Source: Candidatus Saccharimonadota bacterium (GTDB taxonomy: Bacteria > Patescibacteriota > Saccharimonadia > Saccharimonadales > JAGQNJ01). From it: 64,000 nucleotides of DNA. Positions 1,461 to 40,101 of the stretch are shown in pieces. The translations under genes and the position numbers were made by a program. The notes under the pieces were generated by a model. The model worked only from the letters and a program-made list of their open reading frames with translations, was not told where the DNA came from and made no database searches. Location: the NCBI GenBank assembly GCA_020428405.1, contig JAGQMZ010000002.1:33-64032 (forward strand), read 5' to 3'. The first letter of the stretch is position 1, and every line of letters begins with the position of its first letter.

Positions 1461-2312
1461 TTAGGCTTGTTCCCAGATTTCTTTAGTCAGCACGTTATAA
1501 CGCCTGAGCTTGTCTATAGTCGTAAACCGTACATCTGGTCGGTCTTTATCATCTCGATCCCAGTCCTCGCTAATTAACCCTCTGGTTCGCTGTTTGGCGT
1601 ATATTAAGTCTGTTAGCGTTGCACATACAAGTAGCATCGTCGGTCGTGGATTACCGGTTCGTTCGTTCCACTCATCAATTTCATCTTCAAAGTACTGGAC
1701 GTAGTTCTTTAGTCGCTTACGTAAACGGTAGTGCGGTAGGGTTGCCTCAAAGATTTCTAGTATGTAGCTACTTTGAACTGAATTTGGGTCGGCAAGTTCG
1801 TCAGTCTCACATTTATGGAAGCAGAGGTCAGGATTAATGAGTTCGCTGTCATTCATGAGGTCGTAATACCGTTCATCCTGATAATCCGCTCGAGTCTCGT
1901 AGTAATAACAGGTCGTGTGGTGGTAGCTGGCGTGTCGTGTATCATCAAGCTCAATGCAGCAGTTCGCTATATCTAAACAACTGTCAATAAAGCTCTGGCT
2001 GCGTTCATTATCGCGGTAGCGTATAGCAAGTCCATCTTCTGGGGCAAACGGTAGGTTTCGCAGGTGTCGGATACCATTAATCCCCATATAATAAATGGCT
2101 GGCTTAGTTTTATCCGCAAAGTGGTCTTTGTTATAAATCCAACATATGTAGTCTTTAGAGCGTAGGTCTTTAAGCCATAGGTTTATTGTTTTCTTATCTT
2201 TATGCTTCATCATTGTTTGTATTTGAATTCTTGTTAAGAAACGAAAGCTGTATAGTAAATTAATAATTTGTTTTTGTTTAGGTGTTATTTTTGGCAGCGA
2301 TTCTATTTTCAT
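1461..2312 (-). CDS. Replication-relaxation (Replic_Relax) family protein, plasmid/mobile-element associated
   Basis: The N-terminal wHTH-like ITPKQKQIINLLYSFRFLTRIQIQTMM...WLKDLRSKDYI resembles the L..RD..IL..L...R.LT..Q pattern of that family. Assigned from memory of the family, not from a search. Confidence 0.45.
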   Translation of the reverse strand: MKIESLPKITPKQKQIINLLYSFRFLTRIQIQTMMKHKDKKTINLWLKDLRSKDYICWIYNKDHFADKTKPAIYYMGINGIRHLRNLPFAPEDGLAIRYRDNERSQSFIDSCLDIANCCIELDDTRHASYHHTTCYYYETRADYQDERYYDLMNDSELINPDLCFHKCETDELADPNSVQSSYILEIFEATLPHYRLRKRLKNYVQYFEDEIDEWNERTGNPRPTMLLVCATLTDLIYAKQRTRGLISEDWDRDDKDRPDVRFTTIDKLRRYNVLTKEIWEQA

Positions 2313-4921: not shown

Positions 4922-5143
4922 AGTTTTATGAATCCTTTACCTTAAATTTATATCGACCTGAGTGTTAATGTTCTTCTACCAAAAAAGCCTTTGGTTGGCC
5001 AAAGACTTCTTAATATACGATTTTGCTTTTATCTTTTATAAATAACGGCTTCTCGTACCTCGGTAGCATTCTTAAGTGGTTACACCGCTACTGTCTTTGG
5101 TAAAATGTACCTGAATTATATCAATTCTTTAGGGTAATATCAA
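4922..5143 (-). promoter_or_regulatory. rplJ promoter and L10-leader-like structured 5' UTR with attenuator hairpin
   Basis: TTGATA (5138-5143), N17, TATAAT (5115-5120) on the minus strand. The ~190-nt leader contains GUCUUUGG-ccaa-CCAAAGGC plus UUUUUU (4981-5007). This hairpin's G-U pair works only in minus sense. SD is AAGGTAAAGGA. Confidence 0.5.
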
Positions 5144-6765: not shown

Positions 6766-9060
6766 TTATATACTATTAAGTTTGAACTGAGTATATCGTT
6801 CGGCTGCTAAACGAGTTAATTCTGGATCTTCATCTTTGTTTACAAATATCATTGCATCAGCAATAACTGGGTGGACTTCTGCAAGCTTATCGTGCATCTG
6901 TTTAACTAGTTTTCTGTAACCAGGATGGCCTTGTGGAGTTGTTCTTAGTTCGTGCAAGTGAAAAGCTTCTCTTGCGTTATATGTAACTTTCCAGCGCATT
7001 TTATGGCCAAGTAAGGTTGCATACTGGGCTTCTAAATCATAACCAGCTTTTTGTAAGTCACTATACAACGACAGACTAATTTCAAAACATTGCTCAAATT
7101 CATCTGTTAGATTAGCTTGCTCAACTAAATCAGGGACATCAAAGCCTAGCCTTGGCGAAAGATACTGCCATTCAAGGTCATCGACAATTCGATGACGTTG
7201 TAAATCTCTAAAAATACCGTAGTCACAAACAAGATCCCAAGAATAATGCGCTTTTTCTAATGCTCTGCCAGGACGGTGCCTTCTGTTTAGTCTTTCTCCC
7301 ATATAGCTGTTAAATATTTCTAAGCGTTTTTGATAGGGCATTTCATTAACTTGTTGCTGAATTTCTTCAAGCGGTGCATTTGAATGCTCGTATACCATAT
7401 CTGCAACTAGGTCTAGCTCATTTCGTGGCCAGTAGCTGGAGAGTGTAACTTCAGATGTTTTGTCCGAAATGCCGTATGATTGAGAGACAAGTTCGTTAGC
7501 TAATTTACTTACTGCTTTATAAGTATTTGCCCTATATGCAATAGTGGCACCGCCACGCTCAGGCTTATCTGCTCTTTCAAGAAATGTCGGAATAACTTTT
7601 CTTAACTCATCAAGCAACTGTTTACCTACTTTTTGGGCTTCTGGCAATTTGTCTGACATAAGGTGCATTATTAAACTTTCTAGAGCCTGACCTGAAGCGT
7701 AAATACCTACAGTTGATGTGGTTGCAACGGGCAAAAGTGGTCTTGCGGCGTCGCAAGCTTGTGCCCGGGTTGCGCTCTTCCAAGCTGTGTCTTGCTGATT
7801 TTTTGATACGCTAGAATTTGATCTCACGTATGCGGTCAGTTTGTGTACAATATCCGAGTATATATCAAAAATTTTATCGATTTTGGCTATGTATTTATCT
7901 TTGGTTTCAGTGTCTAAATATTTAGGTATATGGTACCTATATTTACCTTGACTATCTTTTTGGTCAAAATATATGTACCGAGTTGACTGCTCTAGGTATG
8001 ATGCCAATCTACCCCACTCAAGCTTTTTTGTAAGCAGATTAGAAGCGTTTTCTACTACAACATGTTGGCCAACTAGCTGTTGTACAGAATCATCGCCATA
8101 TGCTGTAATGACACGTTTTAGTAAGTTCTCATCTTTGCCGGCTTTTTCTATAAATTCGTCCAAAATCGTTATCCGCATATCATCACCGCGTCGGCTAAGC
8201 CTTGCCATTGCTGCGGCTATTGTTACCGGGCTTAGTTCTTCGTTAAAGGCATAAACACTGCTGTTGGTGTTAGTGACTACATTGGAAAGATATTGTTTGC
8301 CGGCATCGGTTATTTTATAGCCGTCATCATCTTTTATTAGTAATTCTTCGTTTAATGTATTTACTGGTTTAAGCATTGGCTGAACTTTCTCCCATATCAT
8401 TTTATGTACTGTATCAATATCAAGTAATTGACCATCTCTTACGCAATCTATTCGTTCAAAATCCTTAGGGAATAACTCGCACAAATCATCGTATACTTCT
8501 ACAGCTGTTTGTAAATGTTTTAAGTCAGCTTCATGGATATCTCGTTTTTTATCCGTATAAGTTCGCTCTTCTTTTTGGTCTACCAGCTTTTGAGCTATCT
8601 CGGCCGGAACTCTAAGCACAAAGTTTTTATCTGGCCTGGGTATTCCAAGCATTTCAAATTCTAAGTTATCAAGCCAAATAAAATAGCCACGTCTTTCCTC
8701 TGGATGACTAAATTTTGTTCCTTGGTGGCCCATGTTAGAGCCTGTAAATCTGTTGCACAGTACAATTTTACCGGCCTTCAGTGCTTTTTTTATGTCAGAA
8801 GATGCCTGGTATCTATCTAGGGCATAAAATAGCGAACCAGTATATGGACCTACCTGCTCGGCTGTGCCGTATTTGCCATTCAAGTATTCCTTGACAAAAA
8901 AGCTTGAATTTTCTTCGTATTGAGGAAAGTCAAAAGTTGCAACATCATGGCCTTCGCGCTCCAACCGTTGTTTTAGTAATTTAAATTGTGTACCTTTACC
9001 TGAACCGTCGGTACCTTCGATTACTATAAAAAGACCTTCCCCACCCGTTTTGCTGGGCAT
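6766..9060 (-). CDS. tmk-thyX: Fusion protein: thymidylate kinase (N-terminal) plus tandem-type FAD-dependent thymidylate synthase ThyX (C-terminal)
   Basis: The N-terminus has the FIVIEGTDGSGKGTQ P-loop and an ALDRY motif. The C-terminal ~530 aa carries ASYLEQSTRY and LQRHR...AREAFHLHELRTTPQGHPGYR, which are ThyX signatures in a duplicated arrangement. An alternative GTG start at 9075 would overlap dcd. Confidence 0.8.
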   Translation of the reverse strand: MPSKTGGEGLFIVIEGTDGSGKGTQFKLLKQRLEREGHDVATFDFPQYEENSSFFVKEYLNGKYGTAEQVGPYTGSLFYALDRYQASSDIKKALKAGKIVLCNRFTGSNMGHQGTKFSHPEERRGYFIWLDNLEFEMLGIPRPDKNFVLRVPAEIAQKLVDQKEERTYTDKKRDIHEADLKHLQTAVEVYDDLCELFPKDFERIDCVRDGQLLDIDTVHKMIWEKVQPMLKPVNTLNEELLIKDDDGYKITDAGKQYLSNVVTNTNSSVYAFNEELSPVTIAAAMARLSRRGDDMRITILDEFIEKAGKDENLLKRVITAYGDDSVQQLVGQHVVVENASNLLTKKLEWGRLASYLEQSTRYIYFDQKDSQGKYRYHIPKYLDTETKDKYIAKIDKIFDIYSDIVHKLTAYVRSNSSVSKNQQDTAWKSATRAQACDAARPLLPVATTSTVGIYASGQALESLIMHLMSDKLPEAQKVGKQLLDELRKVIPTFLERADKPERGGATIAYRANTYKAVSKLANELVSQSYGISDKTSEVTLSSYWPRNELDLVADMVYEHSNAPLEEIQQQVNEMPYQKRLEIFNSYMGERLNRRHRPGRALEKAHYSWDLVCDYGIFRDLQRHRIVDDLEWQYLSPRLGFDVPDLVEQANLTDEFEQCFEISLSLYSDLQKAGYDLEAQYATLLGHKMRWKVTYNAREAFHLHELRTTPQGHPGYRKLVKQMHDKLAEVHPVIADAMIFVNKDEDPELTRLAAERYTQFKLNSI

Positions 9061-9067
9061 GGAAGTA

Positions 9068-9781
9068 TCAGTCACCTTTTAAACCTGCAATTCCTTTCGG
9101 TAAAATTCTTTTATCCTTATATGCTTTTGGCAGCATCTGGTCAGGAGTCCAATTTTTAATTAATGTATCAAGATCTGTTCCTGACTGATATTTGCCGCTA
9201 AACCCGCTATTTCTTCCTTGGCCGTAGTTACCTTCAACCTGGCCTGTTTCTAAAAATATTGCTTGTGCGATCCGTTCACCAACTGGCAAAAGCACGATTT
9301 CTTTGTGATTTAAGTTATAAATTTCTAGTGTTAGCCGGTTTATATATCCGGGGTCAACCCAGCCGGCATCAAAACACACTGCTACACCATTTCGTCCCCA
9401 ACTTGAACGAGCCTTTATTTCATATGCTCCAGGTGGTTTTATGCCAAAAAATTCGTGTGTATGAGCTAAAATTCGTTCGCCAGGCTTTAATGGTATGATG
9501 GGGTGTTTTGGCGGTATGTTCTTAAGAAGCTTAACACCGTTAATATCGCACCATTCCTTATGGGGTAATGCGGTTTGTGGTTTACCAAAGTATCTTTGAA
9601 CGTCAGACTCATCAAATGGATTATAGATTGTATTATCACCGGCTCGTTCAGTTCTATAATAGTTTGCTCCTAAAGTTACATCTAGACTAGCATGAGATAT
9701 ATGCTTGGGACTAAACGGCCGACAGACTATGTGCCCGTCATCTAAAGCCTTTTTAATTTGAATATTACTATATACTCCCAT
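9068..9781 (-). CDS. dcd: dCTP deaminase / dUTPase-superfamily protein
   Basis: IQIKKALDDGHIV..PF, then KARSSWGRNGV...DAGWVDPGY.NRLTLEIYN, typical of Dcd. The ATG at 9781 is preferred over the track's TTG at 9802. Confidence 0.8.
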   Translation of the reverse strand: MGVYSNIQIKKALDDGHIVCRPFSPKHISHASLDVTLGANYYRTERAGDNTIYNPFDESDVQRYFGKPQTALPHKEWCDINGVKLLKNIPPKHPIIPLKPGERILAHTHEFFGIKPPGAYEIKARSSWGRNGVAVCFDAGWVDPGYINRLTLEIYNLNHKEIVLLPVGERIAQAIFLETGQVEGNYGQGRNSGFSGKYQSGTDLDTLIKNWTPDQMLPKAYKDKRILPKGIAGLKGD

Positions 9782-11551: not shown

Positions 11552-11797
11552 TTACTCGTCTTCTACTGCACCATATGGATCATCTACGCCTCCCTCACGT
11601 AAATCTGAAATTGTATCTTCAATATGCGGAGTTATATCTTCTGTTGAGGGTAACTTAATCCTGTTTTTTTCTGCAAACTGTTGCATTCTTTCATTATATG
11701 CGTCATTGTCCGGAAATCCTGGGCCAGCAGATCCGCGTTTAGGCGTTACTTTACCTGGATAGGTCTCTGGGTTGTAAAGATTTTTCTCACCTTCCAT
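11552..11797 (-). CDS. Hypothetical small acidic protein (81 aa) between rplK and rplA
   Basis: SD GAGGAGATAG about 12 nt upstream. Starts 2 nt after the preceding ORF's stop. No family recognised. Confidence 0.5.
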   Translation of the reverse strand: MEGEKNLYNPETYPGKVTPKRGSAGPGFPDNDAYNERMQQFAEKNRIKLPSTEDITPHIEDTISDLREGGVDDPYGAVEDE

Positions 11798-11799
11798 AA

Positions 11800-12048
11800 T
11801 TATTCTATCTCCTCTAGAACACCTAACTTGTCTAAGAAATATTTCGCCTGAACACTATTATTCGCTCTGTAAACTTGCTGCAAACGGTCAATAACTTTTT
11901 GCGACTTATCATTTTCTATTGGCAATTCGTCATTTACTAGCATATATGCCGAACGTCTATCGTGTTCAGAAAATAATAAAGATGGATCAGAATCTTCGTT
12001 ATGTATGGGTAGTGAGCCAGAGTTATTTTGCCCTGTATAAAGTGTCAT
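11800..12048 (-). CDS. Hypothetical small acidic protein (82 aa) between rplK and rplA
   Basis: Starts 2 nt after the rplK stop, with GGAGATAG in the rplK 3' end as SD. No family recognised. Confidence 0.5.
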   Translation of the reverse strand: MTLYTGQNNSGSLPIHNEDSDPSLLFSEHDRRSAYMLVNDELPIENDKSQKVIDRLQQVYRANNSVQAKYFLDKLGVLEEIE

Positions 12049-12050
12049 GG

Positions 12051-12479
12051 TTAGTTAGCTATCTCCACACCCATACTACGTGCTGTACCGGCAACCATCT
12101 TTTTAACTGCTTCTACGTTATCAGCATTCATATCTTTAGCTTTTTCTTCGGCAATCTCTGTTAGCTGAGCGTCAGTTAACTTTTTATCAAGTTTTTCTGT
12201 ATTTGGGCGGCCAGAGCCTTTTTGGATGCCAAGTTTTTGGCGGATTAAATCATCAGTTGGCTGTGATACAACCCTAAAATCCATTGAACGGTCATCAAAA
12301 ATTGTAATATGAGCTGTGACTGTACCTTTCATGTCTTTGGTCGCCTCGTTAAAAGGCGTCACAAAGTCCATCATATTAACACCATACTGACCAAGTGTTG
12401 AACCCACAGGAGGGCCAGCACTGGCTTTGCCGGCTGGAATCTTCATTTTTAGATTTGCTTTAACTTCTTTTTTAGCCAC
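12051..12479 (-). CDS. rplK: 50S ribosomal protein L11 (uL11)
   Basis: KMKIPAGKASAGPPVGSTLGQYGVNMMDFVTPFN is a canonical L11 N-terminal domain. GTG start. Confidence 0.95.
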   Translation of the reverse strand: MAKKEVKANLKMKIPAGKASAGPPVGSTLGQYGVNMMDFVTPFNEATKDMKGTVTAHITIFDDRSMDFRVVSQPTDDLIRQKLGIQKGSGRPNTEKLDKKLTDAQLTEIAEEKAKDMNADNVEAVKKMVAGTARSMGVEIAN

Positions 12480-12494
12480 GTTTATACCTACTCT

Positions 12495-12578
12495 TTACGT
12501 AATTTAATCTGTTATTTAGTGTCATTTACGTAATCGTTTACGTAAACGATTACGTAACTATCTAAAAAAGTGCGTAAC
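12495..12578. promoter_or_regulatory. Array of TTACGTAA palindromes (candidate operator) just upstream of rplK
   Basis: Exact TTACGTAA at 12495, 12526, 12538 and 12550, plus a half-site TGCGTAAC at 12571. The three central boxes are 12 bp apart and lie within a perfect 30-bp palindrome (12527-12556). The box at 12495 is 16 nt from the GTG start. Confidence 0.5.
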
Positions 12579-12616
12579 TCGTTTATTCTACTACAAATCA
12601 CCCCTGTTGTCTACCC

Positions 12617-12691
12617 ATGAGACAAACCTACGGTTTTTCTCATCGCACCAGGCAAAAATGCGATTTTTGCTTGAGCTGCTCTTTTCCCTAA
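12617..12691. repeat. Copy B of the structured intergenic repeat (nusG-rplK spacer)
   Basis: See copy A. The first 29 nt are identical. One substitution pair keeps a stem base pair (G:C in A, A:U in B). Confidence 0.6.
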
Positions 12692-12951
12692 TTTCGGTTA
12701 TGATTTTTTCTTCTGTAATTGGTATAGAACTTCACTACATCTAGTGCTATCTCCTACACGCGTCTGGATAGGGAATACTCCCTGATCGGGGTTTTTGATA
12801 AATGTGTCACTAAACCCACAAGCTTCTACATTACAACCAAATGTTACTTGACTGACAGCTGAACTAGCAAGTGCTATTTCTAGCTTAACCTCTTAACTAA
12901 ATAAAACGAGGTATCTCCACGGATTAACCAAAGGCTCTTGTTGGGCCACAA

Positions 12952-13494
12952 CTAGACTCGTTTGACTTGTAGTGAGTCTAGTTCTACGGGTGTTTCACGA
13001 CCAAACATGTTAACGAGTACTTTAAGTTTGCCCTTTTGAGCGTCAATTTCATTAATAGTGCCGTCAAAGCCTTTGAATGGTCCATCAACAATGTTAACAA
13101 CTTCGCCTTCTTTGTAATCAATCTTATGTTTTGGCTCAGCACGGCCCATACGCTTCATGATTTTTTCAATTTCTGCATTGCTGACAGGGCTTGGGTCGGT
13201 TCCTGTACCAACAAAACCGGTAACGCTTGGAGTGTTTCTAACAATGTACCAGGCGTCTTCCGTAAGTTTCATTTCTACCAATACATAACCCTGAAAAATC
13301 CGTTTTTCTACAACTTTACGCTTACCATTTTTTACCTCTATCATTTTTTCTTTCGGTACTAGAACCTGAAAAATTTTATCTTTCATATCAAGACTGTCGG
13401 CGCGCTGTCTGATACTCTCTGCCACCTTTTCTTCATAGCCACTATAGGTATGGATTGCATACCAGCTTTTATGTGTGTCATAACGTTTGTTCAT
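12952..13494 (-). CDS. nusG: Transcription termination/antitermination factor NusG
   Basis: WYAIHTYSGYEEKV NGN domain and a KOW motif GEVVNIVDGPFKGFDGTINEID. Confidence 0.95.
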   Translation of the reverse strand: MNKRYDTHKSWYAIHTYSGYEEKVAESIRQRADSLDMKDKIFQVLVPKEKMIEVKNGKRKVVEKRIFQGYVLVEMKLTEDAWYIVRNTPSVTGFVGTGTDPSPVSNAEIEKIMKRMGRAEPKHKIDYKEGEVVNIVDGPFKGFDGTINEIDAQKGKLKVLVNMFGRETPVELDSLQVKRV

Positions 13495-13865
13495 TATAAG
13501 ATTACCTCTTTAAATAATTTATCTAACCCATAATCAATGATTGAAACAAAAAATCCAAACACTATGGCAAAAATAAATACCGCCGTAGTTAATTTAATGG
13601 TTTCTTTGCGGCTAGGCCACTCAACCATCTTTACTTCTTGCCAGCTATACATAAAGTAGTCAATTAATAAAATTTTTCTAAAAAATCGGCCGATTGATCT
13701 AAATACTTTATTTTGAAATGGCTTTAATACAAATTTAAACGGTCTTAAAACTGTTAATATTAGTTTTTTTATTGCTGAAAAAAACTTAGTAACAGGAGTT
13801 AGCTTTCGGCGTGTTTTACGCTGTCTCTTGGTCTTTTTTACCGGTTCTTTTCTGACTCTCGCCAT
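13494..13865 (-). CDS. secE: Preprotein translocase subunit SecE with a basic N-terminal extension
   Basis: The C-terminus SWQEVKMVEWPSRKETIKLTTAVFIFAIVFGFFVSIIDYGL is the SecE core. Located upstream of nusG. Confidence 0.85.
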   Translation of the reverse strand: MARVRKEPVKKTKRQRKTRRKLTPVTKFFSAIKKLILTVLRPFKFVLKPFQNKVFRSIGRFFRKILLIDYFMYSWQEVKMVEWPSRKETIKLTTAVFIFAIVFGFFVSIIDYGLDKLFKEVIL

Positions 13866-39181: not shown

Positions 39182-39448
39182 TTACACGCTTATATAGATT
39201 CCAATTGGGAGCCAAAAGCCAACTAGCATTGATACTAAAAGAACAGCGTATTCTATTTTTCTATCAATTTTAAAGTGGTCATGACTTACTAAAACTAAGC
39301 CAATTAATAAGCCAACTGGTATAGGAAGTTGCCAAGACTGGCCATCTGTAGCTTTAATCCATAAAGAACCAAGTACCATGAAAAGTAATATTTTTAAGAA
39401 GTATGCACTGTCTGATTGTTTAGCTTGTTTCTGTTTTTTCTTTGCCAC
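39182..39448 (-). CDS. Hypothetical small membrane protein (88 aa, 2-3 TM) inside the S10 operon
   Basis: K/Q-rich N-terminus followed by hydrophobic helices. GTG start without a clear SD. Confidence 0.45.
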   Translation of the reverse strand: MAKKKQKQAKQSDSAYFLKILLFMVLGSLWIKATDGQSWQLPIPVGLLIGLVLVSHDHFKIDRKIEYAVLLVSMLVGFWLPIGIYISV

Positions 39449-39471: not shown

Positions 39472-39657
39472 CTATTTTTGCCAGTCTTTAATAGTAATAA
39501 TACCGTTCTCTTCGGTTACCACGACTTTTTGACGCTCTTGCCAGCGAAGCTTTCTAATAATACCTACCGGTATTGTTACAGAGTAGCTGCTGGTCCCAAC
39601 TTTAGTGATTTTTCTTACAGGGTTACTACTTGATTTTTCTTGAGCCGTATCTGTATT
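39472..39657 (-). CDS. AbrB/SpoVT-like DNA-binding domain ORF lacking an ATG/GTG/TTG start (not in the ORF track)
   Basis: My translation is NTDTAQEKSSSNPVRKITKVGTSSYSVTIPVGIIRKLRWQERQKVVVTEENGIITIKDWQK*. The VG.S..VTIP..I...L.W..G..V motif is typical of SpoVT/AbrB. Same frame as the 145-aa ORF, separated by TAG-TGT-TAA. A possible ATC start lies at 39609. Confidence 0.4.
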   Translation of the reverse strand, partial: NTDTAQEKSSSNPVRKITKVGTSSYSVTIPVGIIRKLRWQERQKVVVTEENGIITIKDWQK

Positions 39658-39663
39658 TTAACA

Positions 39664-40101
39664 CTATTTACGTAAACGTTTACGTAATCGATTACGTAAA
39701 TTACTATCGTCATCCGGAACCCTCGTTAAGCTACTTTTTAAAAACTTATCGTGATCAAAAATTGAGTTTTCTGGATCAAGCTTACCTATCTCCTGTACCT
39801 TTGAGTAAATTGCACAGTTACCAATTGCTTTCGCGACTTCTGTTCCATATTCTATCATGCGCCAGTCATAGCGCTTACCGTCAAAGCTAAACATACCTGT
39901 AAGAAAATCAACCTCCACACTGTCCGGAAAAATTCGTGACCGGACGCTAACCGGAGCATCACTGAGCTGTTCGCCCGGCAACCCGATAATTGATGGTGTT
40001 GGTAAATCACCTATGACAAGACCTTCTGGGGGATTATGTATGCCGATAATAGAATAATTGCCTGCAACCGCCAATCCAATTAAGTGTTCTGGCTTTGACA
40101 T
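39664..40101 (-). CDS. Hypothetical protein (145 aa) between rpsJ and rplC
   Basis: ORF starts 6 nt after the rpsJ stop. The basic C-terminal tail LRNRLRKRLRK is encoded by the TTACGTAA array, so the true 3' end is uncertain. Confidence 0.4.
   Translation of the reverse strand: MSKPEHLIGLAVAGNYSIIGIHNPPEGLVIGDLPTPSIIGLPGEQLSDAPVSVRSRIFPDSVEVDFLTGMFSFDGKRYDWRMIEYGTEVAKAIGNCAIYSKVQEIGKLDPENSIFDHDKFLKSSLTRVPDDDSNLRNRLRKRLRK
39668..39699. promoter_or_regulatory. Second TTACGTAA array (3 boxes, 12-bp phasing)
   Basis: TTACGTAA at 39668, 39680 and 39692 with palindromic 4-nt spacers ACGT/TCGA. The downstream flank (TTACGTAAAT..TAAA..ACAGAT) resembles the rplK array flank. Lies immediately upstream (minus sense) of the AbrB-like ORF. 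Confidence 0.5.

Follow-up and report, generated by a model that had tools for sequence, protein, structure and literature searches.

Phased arrays of an 8-bp palindrome as candidate operators of a 58-residue AbrB/MazE-fold protein family in Patescibacteria

Introduction

We analyzed a 64,000-nt stretch of a Candidatus Saccharimonadota genome (contig JAGQMZ010000002.1, positions 33 to 64,032; here referred to as the window), in which the 8-bp palindrome TTACGTAA forms two arrays with a strict 12-bp period. Array 1 lies in the 5' leader of the ribosomal-protein gene rplK, and array 2 lies between rpsJ and rplC, just upstream of a 58-codon open reading frame (ORF). On balance we favor the view that these TTACGTAA-N4 arrays are DNA operators of a homodimeric AbrB/MazE-fold repressor of 58 amino acids, encoded just downstream of array 2. 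An operator function with the AbrB-like ORF as regulator appears well supported, since the arrays are non-random, the linkage of gene and operator is family-wide, the type of box tracks residues of a loop, and the predicted fold matches. Control of ribosomal-protein operons by these arrays is plausible for this lineage only and is not conserved. Patescibacteria, also known as the Candidate Phyla Radiation (CPR), account for much of the diversity of bacteria, yet to our knowledge the regulation of their transcription is hardly understood.

Two phased arrays in the window

Exact copies of TTACGTAA are present at eight positions of the window (1717, 12495, 12526, 12538, 12550, 39668, 39680 and 39692). 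Dinucleotide-preserving shuffles contain 1.49 copies on average and five at most, and none of 100 shuffles reached eight. Seven copies fall in two clusters, each of which includes a triplet at a strict 12-bp period. The initial annotation of this DNA had counted these seven correctly and placed all copies in the clusters, missing an eighth one at 1717 that stands alone and is probably due to chance. One-mismatch variants are not enriched (38 versus 39.6 expected), and no near-boxes paired at 11–13 bp were found across the window beyond the two triplets. The elements concerned are as follows.

12526..12557, minus strand: core of array 1, three TTACGTAA boxes at a 12-bp period, minus-strand spacers TCGT and ACGA
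12495..12502, minus strand: fourth, isolated TTACGTAA box, 15 nt upstream of the rplK GTG
12507..12563, minus strand: module 1, AGATAG, three boxes and ATGACACTAAATAACAGAT, homologous to module 2
39668..39699, minus strand: array 2, three TTACGTAA boxes at a 12-bp period, minus-strand spacers TCGA and ACGT
39649..39708, minus strand: module 2, GATAGTAAT, three boxes and ATAGTGTTAAAATACAGAT, ending at the start position of the candidate regulator
39472..39648, minus strand: 58-codon ORF TAQEKSSSNPVRKITKVGTSSYSVTIPVGIIRKLRWQERQKVVVTEENGIITIKDWQK (with stop codon), AbrB/MazE fold by PF04014, AlphaFold2 and Foldseek, candidate cognate repressor
1717..1724, no strand assigned: lone TTACGTAA copy without a phased partner

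The core of array 1 is a perfect 32-bp palindrome (12526–12557), which encloses the 30-bp palindrome around three boxes 12 bp apart (12527–12556) that had been reported before. Four exact boxes and a half-site had been claimed within 84 bp. All four boxes are there, while the supposed half-site is the leader motif GTTACGCAC, which is conserved in 73 of 80 relatives free of boxes. The fourth box had been placed 16 nt from the GTG and over the Shine-Dalgarno (SD) region; by our measurement it is 15 nt upstream and abuts the SD-like AGAGTAGG, directly 5' of it. A distance of 31 bp (about three helical turns) separates it from the closest triplet box, which puts it outside the 12-bp phase. Array 2 forms no perfect hairpin. 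Its 12-mers centered on the spacers, GTAAACGTTTAC and GTAATCGATTAC, are palindromic, whereas their counterparts in array 1 are not.

The earlier description of array 2 as a sister array with the same phasing and a similar flank is borne out by the alignment of modules 1 and 2 over about 57 bp, namely GATAG(T), then the three boxes, and then AAT-N5-TAAA..ACAGAT. The two modules agree at 24 of 24 box positions, 6 of 8 spacer positions and 12 of 19 positions of the 3' flank; that is, 9 of 27 spacer and flank positions differ (about 33%). Under equal rates, zero changes in 24 box positions would be expected with a probability of (18/27)^24, or about 6e-5, in our own arithmetic, which assumes that the divergence of spacers and flank is neutral. 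Because the boxes show no change against this divergence, either they would have been under selection in this genome, or the arrays arose independently, which would likewise imply selection.

Four independent metagenomes of activated sludge or wastewater yielded contigs in which both arrays are found without any difference, and hence the arrays are real sequence and no assembly artefact. The organism itself was detected in at least 20 public runs. The metagenome contigs break at the arrays, where the k-mer depth is several-fold, up to about 10-fold, higher than in the flanks; the excess stems from distinct loci that differ in their flanks. Contigs X1, X4 and X7, which overlap 39666–39701 and 12523–12557, represent another locus, whose three-box array is near-identical (2 mismatches) and has a terminator-like hairpin (AAATCCGC..GCGGATTT) beside it. 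Since its depth relative to the window contigs differs among samples, that array probably belongs to a different organism. We also scanned metagenomes with CG-type spacers for more sites of the organism studied here and obtained 12 loci, none of them from it. A phage origin of the arrays was rejected, as a set of 2.9 million viral contigs gave one match only.

A family of 58-residue AbrB/MazE-fold proteins

The initial annotation had pointed to the AbrB-like ORF (given as 39472–39657) as a regulator to begin with, and it proved to be the right candidate, whose predicted contact-loop residues track the box type (see below). The ORF starts 19 nt downstream of array 2. On its own, its match to PF04014 (MazE_antitoxin) is borderline (E=2.6e-5, 24.5 bits versus a cut-off of 24.7 bits), while most of the homologues listed carry a precomputed PF04014 match. 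With an alignment of 70 sequences, AlphaFold2 gave a beta-beta-alpha-beta-beta model with a predicted local distance difference test score of 84 and a folded domain at residues 14–55. The top nine Foldseek matches in the PDB all belong to the SpoVT/AbrB superfamily (MazE, AbrB-N, SpoVT and VapB), with TM scores of 0.55–0.72 and probabilities of about 1.0, although the E-values are weak for such a short chain. A sequence search of the PDB found no significant relative (best E = 0.2–0.4). By its modeled fold, the protein thus belongs to the SpoVT/AbrB swapped-hairpin superfamily.

We searched a genome set of species representatives (185,579 species) with a profile of the family and found 361 loci that encode relatives of the window ORF, almost all of them labelled Patescibacteria. 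At 90% identity, the family of about 58 amino acids comprises at least 3,294 protein clusters, again almost all from Patescibacteria, with generic names such as hypothetical protein, AbrB/MazE/SpoVT domain protein or "antitoxin". The family consensus is M..RK....NIRKLTKVGG.S.AVTLPIE.VR.LGW.ERQKVVV..G..I.IKDWKK. Across about 77 loci, the gene downstream of the family member is hardly ever the same; among these genes are a type I restriction-modification (R-M) HsdM-like gene, DNA methyltransferases, RadC, MazG, RNase HII, enolase, RecG, a Cas12a-like gene and AAA_15/RloB. We rejected the identification of the protein as the antitoxin of a toxin-antitoxin pair, for it has no recurrent PIN- or MazF-like partner and no C-terminal toxin-binding tail.

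In many loci the family gene directly precedes defense or mobile genes (L260, L261–L263, L136, L138, L148, L150, L159, L167, L113, L124, L146 and L172), and within this set AAA_15 and RloB adjoin an N6-methyltransferase and an IS1595 transposase. These genes were named from N-terminal similarity judged by eye, except for the Pfam-annotated L261–L263. Their proximity suggests a controller-like role of the family in CPR.

Linkage between arrays and the family gene

The pattern TTACGTAA-N4-TTACGTAA-N4-TTACGTAA occurs in 99 loci of the same genome set, where far less than one chance match is expected for 24 specified bases in 596 Gb. Most loci are from Patescibacteria, including Saccharibacteria, Moran-, Nomura-, Pacei-, Davies-, Doudna- and Peribacteria, and some metagenome-assembled genomes (MAGs) contain several. 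The arrays hold three to six boxes, invariably with a 12-bp period and with variable spacers; the spacer consensus is TTAA, and the fuller unit reads aaTTACGTAAtt. Classified by their spacers, 49 of the 99 arrays have unrelated ones and 15 have direct repeats, while 35 have a second spacer that is reverse-complementary to the first one (22 mirror-only and 13 with one self-complementary spacer repeated).

In at least 13 of the 99 loci, the array lies 0–30 bp upstream of an AbrB-like gene of 58–62 amino acids homologous to the window ORF. The core of array 1 recurs identically upstream of a family gene in L354, and that of array 2 upstream of family genes in L101, L092 and L356. We then took the best 80 of the 361 family loci for tests of upstream regions. 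Exact TTACGTAA is found within 130 bp upstream of the gene in 33 of them, and 51 exact boxes are present in the 80 upstream regions of 140 bp, versus 16 in the remaining 548 kb. Moreover, two or more phased perfect 8-bp palindromes (not A/T-only) are present in 28 of 78 upstream regions, compared with 4 of 1,457 random 130-bp windows from the same loci. Many remaining family loci carry a different 8-bp unit two to four times with the same 12-bp period, among them ATACGTAT, GTAAGTAA, TTCATGAA, TACTGAATTAATTCAGTA, CCTAGG, ATACTAAT, ATATATAT and TACTGA..TCAGTA. In L155 and L174, the unit GTAAGTAAT is a non-palindromic direct repeat in three to four copies. As units of this direct-repeat type cannot form RNA hairpins, they favor a mechanism at the DNA level. 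The suggestion that the arrays are protein operators, made initially from the window alone, is thus upheld by family genes directly downstream of TTACGTAA-N4 and other 12-bp arrays across Patescibacteria.

In the protein alignment, columns 20 and 22, which belong to the beta1-beta2 loop and flank the invariant Ser21, split the box groups almost perfectly. Proteins at ATACGTAT sites have T20 and L22, while those at TTACGTAA sites have K/H.. and Y/I. Overall identity is 0.53 within the TTACGTAA group and 0.54 between groups, and the sequences are not phylogenetically independent. This pattern is what contacts that determine specificity would look like.

A -10 hexamer ends 2–5 nt before the first box in many family loci, and it stands directly 5' of the arrays in L013, L038, L052, L080, L114, L152, L260 and L354. 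Examples are GGTAGAATAG (followed by TTACG) in L052, GCTAGAATGA in L038, GATATAATCAA in L260, GGTATAATGGAG in L354, and GCTAGAGTAG before tRNA-Ser in L013 and L080. The family arrays end 0–30 nt before the start codon of the regulator. Both window modules keep a -10-like GATAGT at the corresponding place, which may act as a promoter.

Genes beside the arrays in other genomes

A number of arrays adjoin genes of translation. The tRNA-Ser(GCU) gene is 11–15 bp from the array in L013 and L080, and other arrays are next to tRNA-Thr and rpmG (L006), tRNA-Arg (L077), rplJ (L029), rpsP (L031), GreA-fusA (L019) and the 3' end of rplA (L026). Aminoacyl-tRNA synthetases also occur, with a class-I enzyme, probably IleS, in L028 (Pfam tRNA-synt_1) and L042 (N-terminal similarity only), and a class-II enzyme, probably GlyS, in L044. 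Equally near to arrays are mreB, ruvA, dnaG, parB, radC, ispH, an M16 peptidase, and LacI and DeoR regulators, among which parB, radC, ispH and the M16 peptidase were named from N-terminal sequences only; ddl lies beside arrays in four related MAGs. A motif scan for enrichment near translation genes had been proposed in the initial annotation. Beside the arrays of other CPR genomes such genes are frequent, yet no clear enrichment was demonstrable.

Two groups outside Patescibacteria also possess such arrays. In Chloroflexi (L043, L069, L071, L086, L087, L346, L349 and L350), up to five TTACGTAA boxes with GCGA, GCGT or CCGG spacers lie beside LacI-family genes, which are often divergent. The reading centered on the spacer, GTAAGCGNTTAC, fits a LacI-type site, and these arrays probably form a separate operator system with a spacer-centered register. 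Several MAGs of Bacteroidales/Rikenellaceae contain many arrays of three to four TTACGTAA-TTAA units per genome (L003, L009, L012, L020, L025, L027, L033, L036, L046, L049–L051, L054, L057, L062 and L074); no family gene was noticed beside them, in the course of an inspection that was not a systematic search.

The rplK leader and array 1

The genes around array 1 are all on the minus strand.

13494-13865, minus strand: secE
12952-13494, minus strand: nusG
12585..12613, minus strand: sigma-70-like promoter TAGACA-17-TAGAAT (TAGACA 12613–12608, TAGAAT 12590–12585), in the conserved TAGACAACAGGGGT..TAGTATAAT block
12570..12578, minus strand: GTTACGCAC, conserved first motif of the rplK leader (plus strand GTGCGTAAC)
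12051..12479, minus strand: rplK (L11), GTG start, PF03946 and PF00298
10532-11494, minus strand: rplA

Along the minus strand, the order is promoter, GTTACGCAC, TTTTTTAGATAG, three boxes, 23 nt, fourth box, AGAGTAGGTATAAAC and GTG. If transcription starts near 12578, the core of array 1 occupies about +22 to +53 of the leader. The predicted RNA fold of array 1 has an energy of -24.9 kcal/mol (z = -2.9), and it is no terminator because it has no U-tract. Small ORFs in the gap between nusG and rplK are chance-sized only, and array 1 is covered by one of 29 codons. When the full window was scanned against Rfam at the gathering threshold, tRNAs and an L10 leader before rplJ (4972–5118; RF00557, 67 bits) were the sole matches, and a permissive scan of 12400–13000 gave no match better than E=1.

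We compared this leader with the 80 closest rplK loci (L180–L259; RplK identity 78–91%), nearly all labelled Saccharibacteria/Saccharimonadales. Their upstream regions have TAGACAACAGGGGT-N6-TAGTATAAT-N6-GTTACGCAC in common. In 32 of the 80, a hairpin comes after GTTACGCAC, whose 5-bp stem varies while its loop, NNGCUUCA, is conserved; an alignment of 19 of these leaders shows compensatory changes in 5 of 8 predicted pairs. About 20 others have a CUUCUGUCUU...GAAAGGGAAGGAG variant, so that about 50 of the 80 carry one of two conserved leader variants where the window has array 1. The window leader retains the promoter block and GTTACGCAC, but neither the NNGCUUCA-loop hairpin nor the CUUCUGUCUU..GAAAGGGAAGGAG variant, and the array module takes their place. 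The conserved block and hairpin have no match among Rfam families and probably represent an undescribed rplK/rplA leader of Saccharimonadales. Aligning orthologous spacers had been proposed as a check on conservation, and the array does not pass it; TTACGTAA boxes are found upstream of rplK in none of the 80 relatives.

On the minus strand at 12617–12700, upstream of the promoter block, lies an element GGGAAAAGAGCAGC..GCGATGAGAAAAACCGTAGGTTTGTCTCATGGG, which in L185 and L209 is found between the rplK leader hairpin and the SD. In each of the four metagenomes, its k-mer depth is about 2- to 20-fold above the flanks. It might act as a mimic of an L1-binding site.

Array 2 and the region between rpsJ and rplC

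39664..40101, minus strand: 145-aa ORFan directly after rpsJ, whose C-terminus NLRNRLRKRLRK (before the stop codon) is read from array 2
39646..39648, minus strand: ACG codon at the start of the 58-codon ORF, where the aligned homologues all have ATG
39182-39448: 88-aa two-helix membrane ORF, the next gene after the regulator, followed by rplC

The AbrB-like ORF has no canonical start. In-frame TAG and TAA codons shortly precede it, and no canonical start follows before codon 44. Apart from this the ORF is intact; its ACG is unchanged in the four metagenomes, sampled from 2015 to 2025. The 145-aa ORF, with a basic C-terminus, has no homologue among 5.8 billion proteins. In Saccharibacteria relatives the spacer from rpsJ to rplC is long and variable (600–2300 bp), and many of them have a homologue of the 88-aa membrane ORF there. 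In about 45 closest relatives inspected (L264–L308), this spacer contains neither a phased array nor a family gene, merely scattered single boxes, and the 145-aa ORFan is likewise absent from the spacer of the Saccharibacteria relatives inspected. Because of this absence, we regard the ORFan, array 2 and the regulator gene as lineage-specific insertions. Furthermore, a strong promoter-like TG-TATAAT at 39484–39457 could serve the downstream genes independently.

Proposed mechanism

One repressor dimer would bind each 8-bp palindrome, and the 12-bp period would let adjacent dimers touch, giving cooperative occupancy. Because the -10 hexamer ends 2–5 nt before the first box, the array would cover the transcription start, so that bound protein, in the classical position of a repressor, would shut off its own gene. 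Array 2 is best read as being first of all the autoregulatory operator of the regulator, not a dedicated operator of the S10 operon; bound between rpsJ and rplC, the repressor could also impede read-through from rpsJ toward rplC. As for the ACG start, it might be used at a low level, possibly through re-initiation 15 nt past the stop of the upstream ORF, which is speculation on our part. Array 1 seems to have arisen through duplication of the operator module. At about 20–50 nt downstream of the conserved promoter, a repressor bound there could act as a roadblock to RNA polymerase or hinder promoter escape, and rplK, probably with the downstream small ORFs and rplA, would come under the same regulator.

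The DNA-level control of ribosomal-protein operons that had been postulated from the window is therefore retained in part: both arrays do lie inside such operons, but array 2 appears mainly autoregulatory and the rplK array is not conserved. That rplK changed, in this lineage, from control through RNA to control through DNA is a live reading. The most extended form of the proposal comprises a very large undescribed CPR family of 58-aa AbrB-fold mini-repressors, with a simple operator code of 8-bp units at a 12-bp period and a specificity that two or three loop residues determine, together with a module copied into the rplK leader, which would rewire RNA-level autogenous control into DNA-level control by a factor made inside the S10 operon from an ACG start, possibly by re-initiation. 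Taken as a whole, we put this forward tentatively and with less than even confidence.

Alternative explanations

Several points tell against the operator proposal and leave room for other explanations. The ACG at the start of the regulator comes with no other usable start, so the protein may be made at a very low level or not at all, and no second copy of the family was found within the 64-kb window. The rplK array is conserved in none of the 80 closest relatives. Array 1 would also be part of the mRNA, being downstream of the presumed transcription start, and folds well there. The genes next to arrays are heterogeneous, and translation genes do not clearly dominate. Finally, the TTACGTAA-N4 pattern alone does not name its binder, because the same arrays are found at LacI genes of Chloroflexi and in Bacteroidales MAGs. 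The first two of these points would suit a relic or near-neutral duplicate, in which a module was copied illegitimately into the rplK leader, the regulator lost its start (ATG to ACG), and the arrays are idle or merely persist. The fixation of the ACG in four metagenomes, the missing rplK array in 80 relatives, and a variable rpsJ-rplC spacer that in relatives contains no AbrB-like gene, no 145-aa ORFan and no array 2 agree with it. We consider it rather unlikely, as the seven boxes of the clusters are without mismatch whereas the flanks and spacers common to both modules differ by about 33%, the reading frame of 58 codons is unbroken, and the loss of the relatives' conserved and covarying leader hairpin to a useless insert would be expected to carry a cost. 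An element acting in RNA is less probable still; here the 32-nt palindrome would form a hairpin in the rplK 5' untranslated region and tune translation or mRNA stability in place of the ancestral leader hairpin. It would account for the position and the good fold of array 1 (-24.9 kcal/mol, z = -2.9), for the SD-proximal box, which can pair with any other box, for the reverse-complementary second spacer in 35 of 99 arrays, and for the conserved leader variant that about 50 of 80 relatives have in this position, with a covarying hairpin in 32. It does not agree with array 2, which is imperfect as a hairpin, with the 49 arrays having unrelated and the 15 having direct-repeat spacers, with the non-palindromic direct-repeat operators of the family, which cannot form hairpins, or with a box identity that follows protein loop residues; in addition, the missing U-tract excludes a terminator, and Rfam gives no match. 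A curated ribosomal-protein leader RNA was rejected, given no Rfam match in 12400–13000 and the absence of the relatives' hairpin.

Another binder is conceivable as well, either a LacI-type regulator that reads the 12-bp palindromes centered on the spacers, GTAAACGTTTAC and GTAATCGATTAC, or MraZ. The Chloroflexi TTACGTAA-GCGN arrays adjoin LacI-family genes, both spacer-centered 12-mers of array 2 are palindromic, and one Saccharibacteria array is 340 bp from mraZ (L055). We regard this as very improbable, since there is no LacI-family gene in the window, the spacers of CPR arrays vary freely around the consensus TTAA, the spacer-centered 12-mers of array 1 are not palindromic, and published MraZ boxes are GTG(G/T) with a 10-bp period (PMC12957436). 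A LacI-family operator in the window was rejected on two of these grounds, the lack of a LacI homologue and the restriction of palindromic spacer-centered 12-mers to array 2. Least probable of all, the arrays might be a mobile repeat of the kind of a miniature inverted-repeat transposable element, or plain protein-coding sequence. The shared flanks of the two copies, the breaking contigs and raised k-mer depth at the arrays, and the reading of array 2 as the C-terminus of the 145-aa ORF would agree with such an origin. Judged by eye, though, there are no terminal inverted repeats and no target-site duplication at the module ends or flanks; only two copies exist in 64 kb. The mobile repeat named initially as a possible refutation fits poorly. 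Besides, the surplus depth comes from different loci with different flanks, viral contigs yield a single match in 2.9 million, and the 145-aa ORF is an ORFan, while array 1 lies in a 29-codon ORF in another frame. The coding explanation was rejected for the latter reasons, namely a 145-aa ORF without homologues and an array 1 not read in the same frame. Among these explanations, the operator proposal, with the 58-aa protein as repressor, is the best supported.

Other features near array 1

Two small unannotated ORFs of 81–82 amino acids lie between rplK and rplA (within 11552–12048), and one of them has weak homologues at the equivalent place in L223 and L229. The window RplA has an N-terminal extension of about 100 amino acids. 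An ORF of 769 amino acids at 6766–9075 has a thymidylate-kinase-like N-terminus apparently fused to a ThyX-like C-terminus, with motifs judged by eye.

Significance

In the searchable full-text literature, we found no description of the family, of its motif in bacteria, of AbrB-type regulators in CPR, or of transcription-factor motifs or promoters in Saccharibacteria. The work presents a candidate pair of regulator and operator, found again in many of the CPR loci that we examined and belonging to a family of thousands of clusters, together with predicted specificity residues and a small candidate target set per genome. Such a pair could be turned into a compact repressor/operator system that is programmable. 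The rplK site is relevant to the speed at which the regulation of ribosomal proteins can be rewired, as an RNA leader may have been exchanged there for a DNA operator.

Comparison with known systems

The CPR family resembles AbrB/SpoVT/MazE (PF04014) in its fold, in the Pfam match, and in being a small basic protein beside its own operator, which implies autoregulation. It differs in that its 58 amino acids hold a DNA-binding domain and a basic N-terminal arm, without the C-terminal domain for oligomerization or toxin binding. Its operator is strictly phased and palindromic, whereas AbrB sites are described as highly variable (PMC4022651), and the family is essentially confined to Patescibacteria. 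Type II antitoxins (MazE, VapB and PrlF) share the DNA-binding fold and autoregulation at palindromic operators, and family members are even named "antitoxin" in databases; however, the CPR family has no conserved toxin partner and lacks the C-terminal toxin-binding tail.

A precedent for this logic is HsdC, the R-M controller of Mollicutes, likewise a small autoregulator of a genome-reduced lineage whose phased repeats are found at its own operon and at several housekeeping promoters. Besides its own promoter, HsdC recognizes direct repeats at clpB and at a tRNA cluster, and its site is a direct-repeat pair, (GTGTTAN5)2, in contrast to the phased palindrome arrays found here (PMC5282649). The genomic context is alike too, in that the CPR family often precedes R-M or defense genes and arrays also stand before tRNA and ribosomal-protein genes. 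C-proteins are helix-turn-helix proteins, not of the AbrB fold, and the window protein does not belong to them. The operator logic of the CPR arrays also resembles the met-box arrays of MetJ, which consist of two to five identical 8-bp palindromes, each bound by a dimer that reads DNA with a beta-sheet, cooperatively between neighbors. Met-boxes abut at an 8-bp period, and MetJ is a ribbon-helix-helix protein that needs a co-repressor.

By analogy, the operator logic would work most like that of MraZ, which has an AbrB-related "cradle" fold and several short identical boxes at a fixed period. MraZ binds three to four boxes in a spacing-dependent manner, and binding and repression drop stepwise as boxes are mutated (PMC12957436). 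Its own features are a chain of about 150 amino acids with two AbrB-like repeats, rings of 8–12 subunits, and a gene that heads the dcw cluster; its boxes are non-palindromic GTG(G/T) with 6-nt spacers and a 10-bp period, as against 8-bp palindromes with a 12-bp period here. Membership of the window protein in MraZ was rejected, as it is a single 58-aa domain in a variable context and, in L055, another gene encodes a true MraZ (PF02381). As to autogenous control of ribosomal proteins, exemplified by the L10 leader and by L1 at the L11 operon, array 1 shares the location in the rplK 5' leader; in place of an RNA hairpin, however, the leader in the window holds a module of the DNA-operator type.

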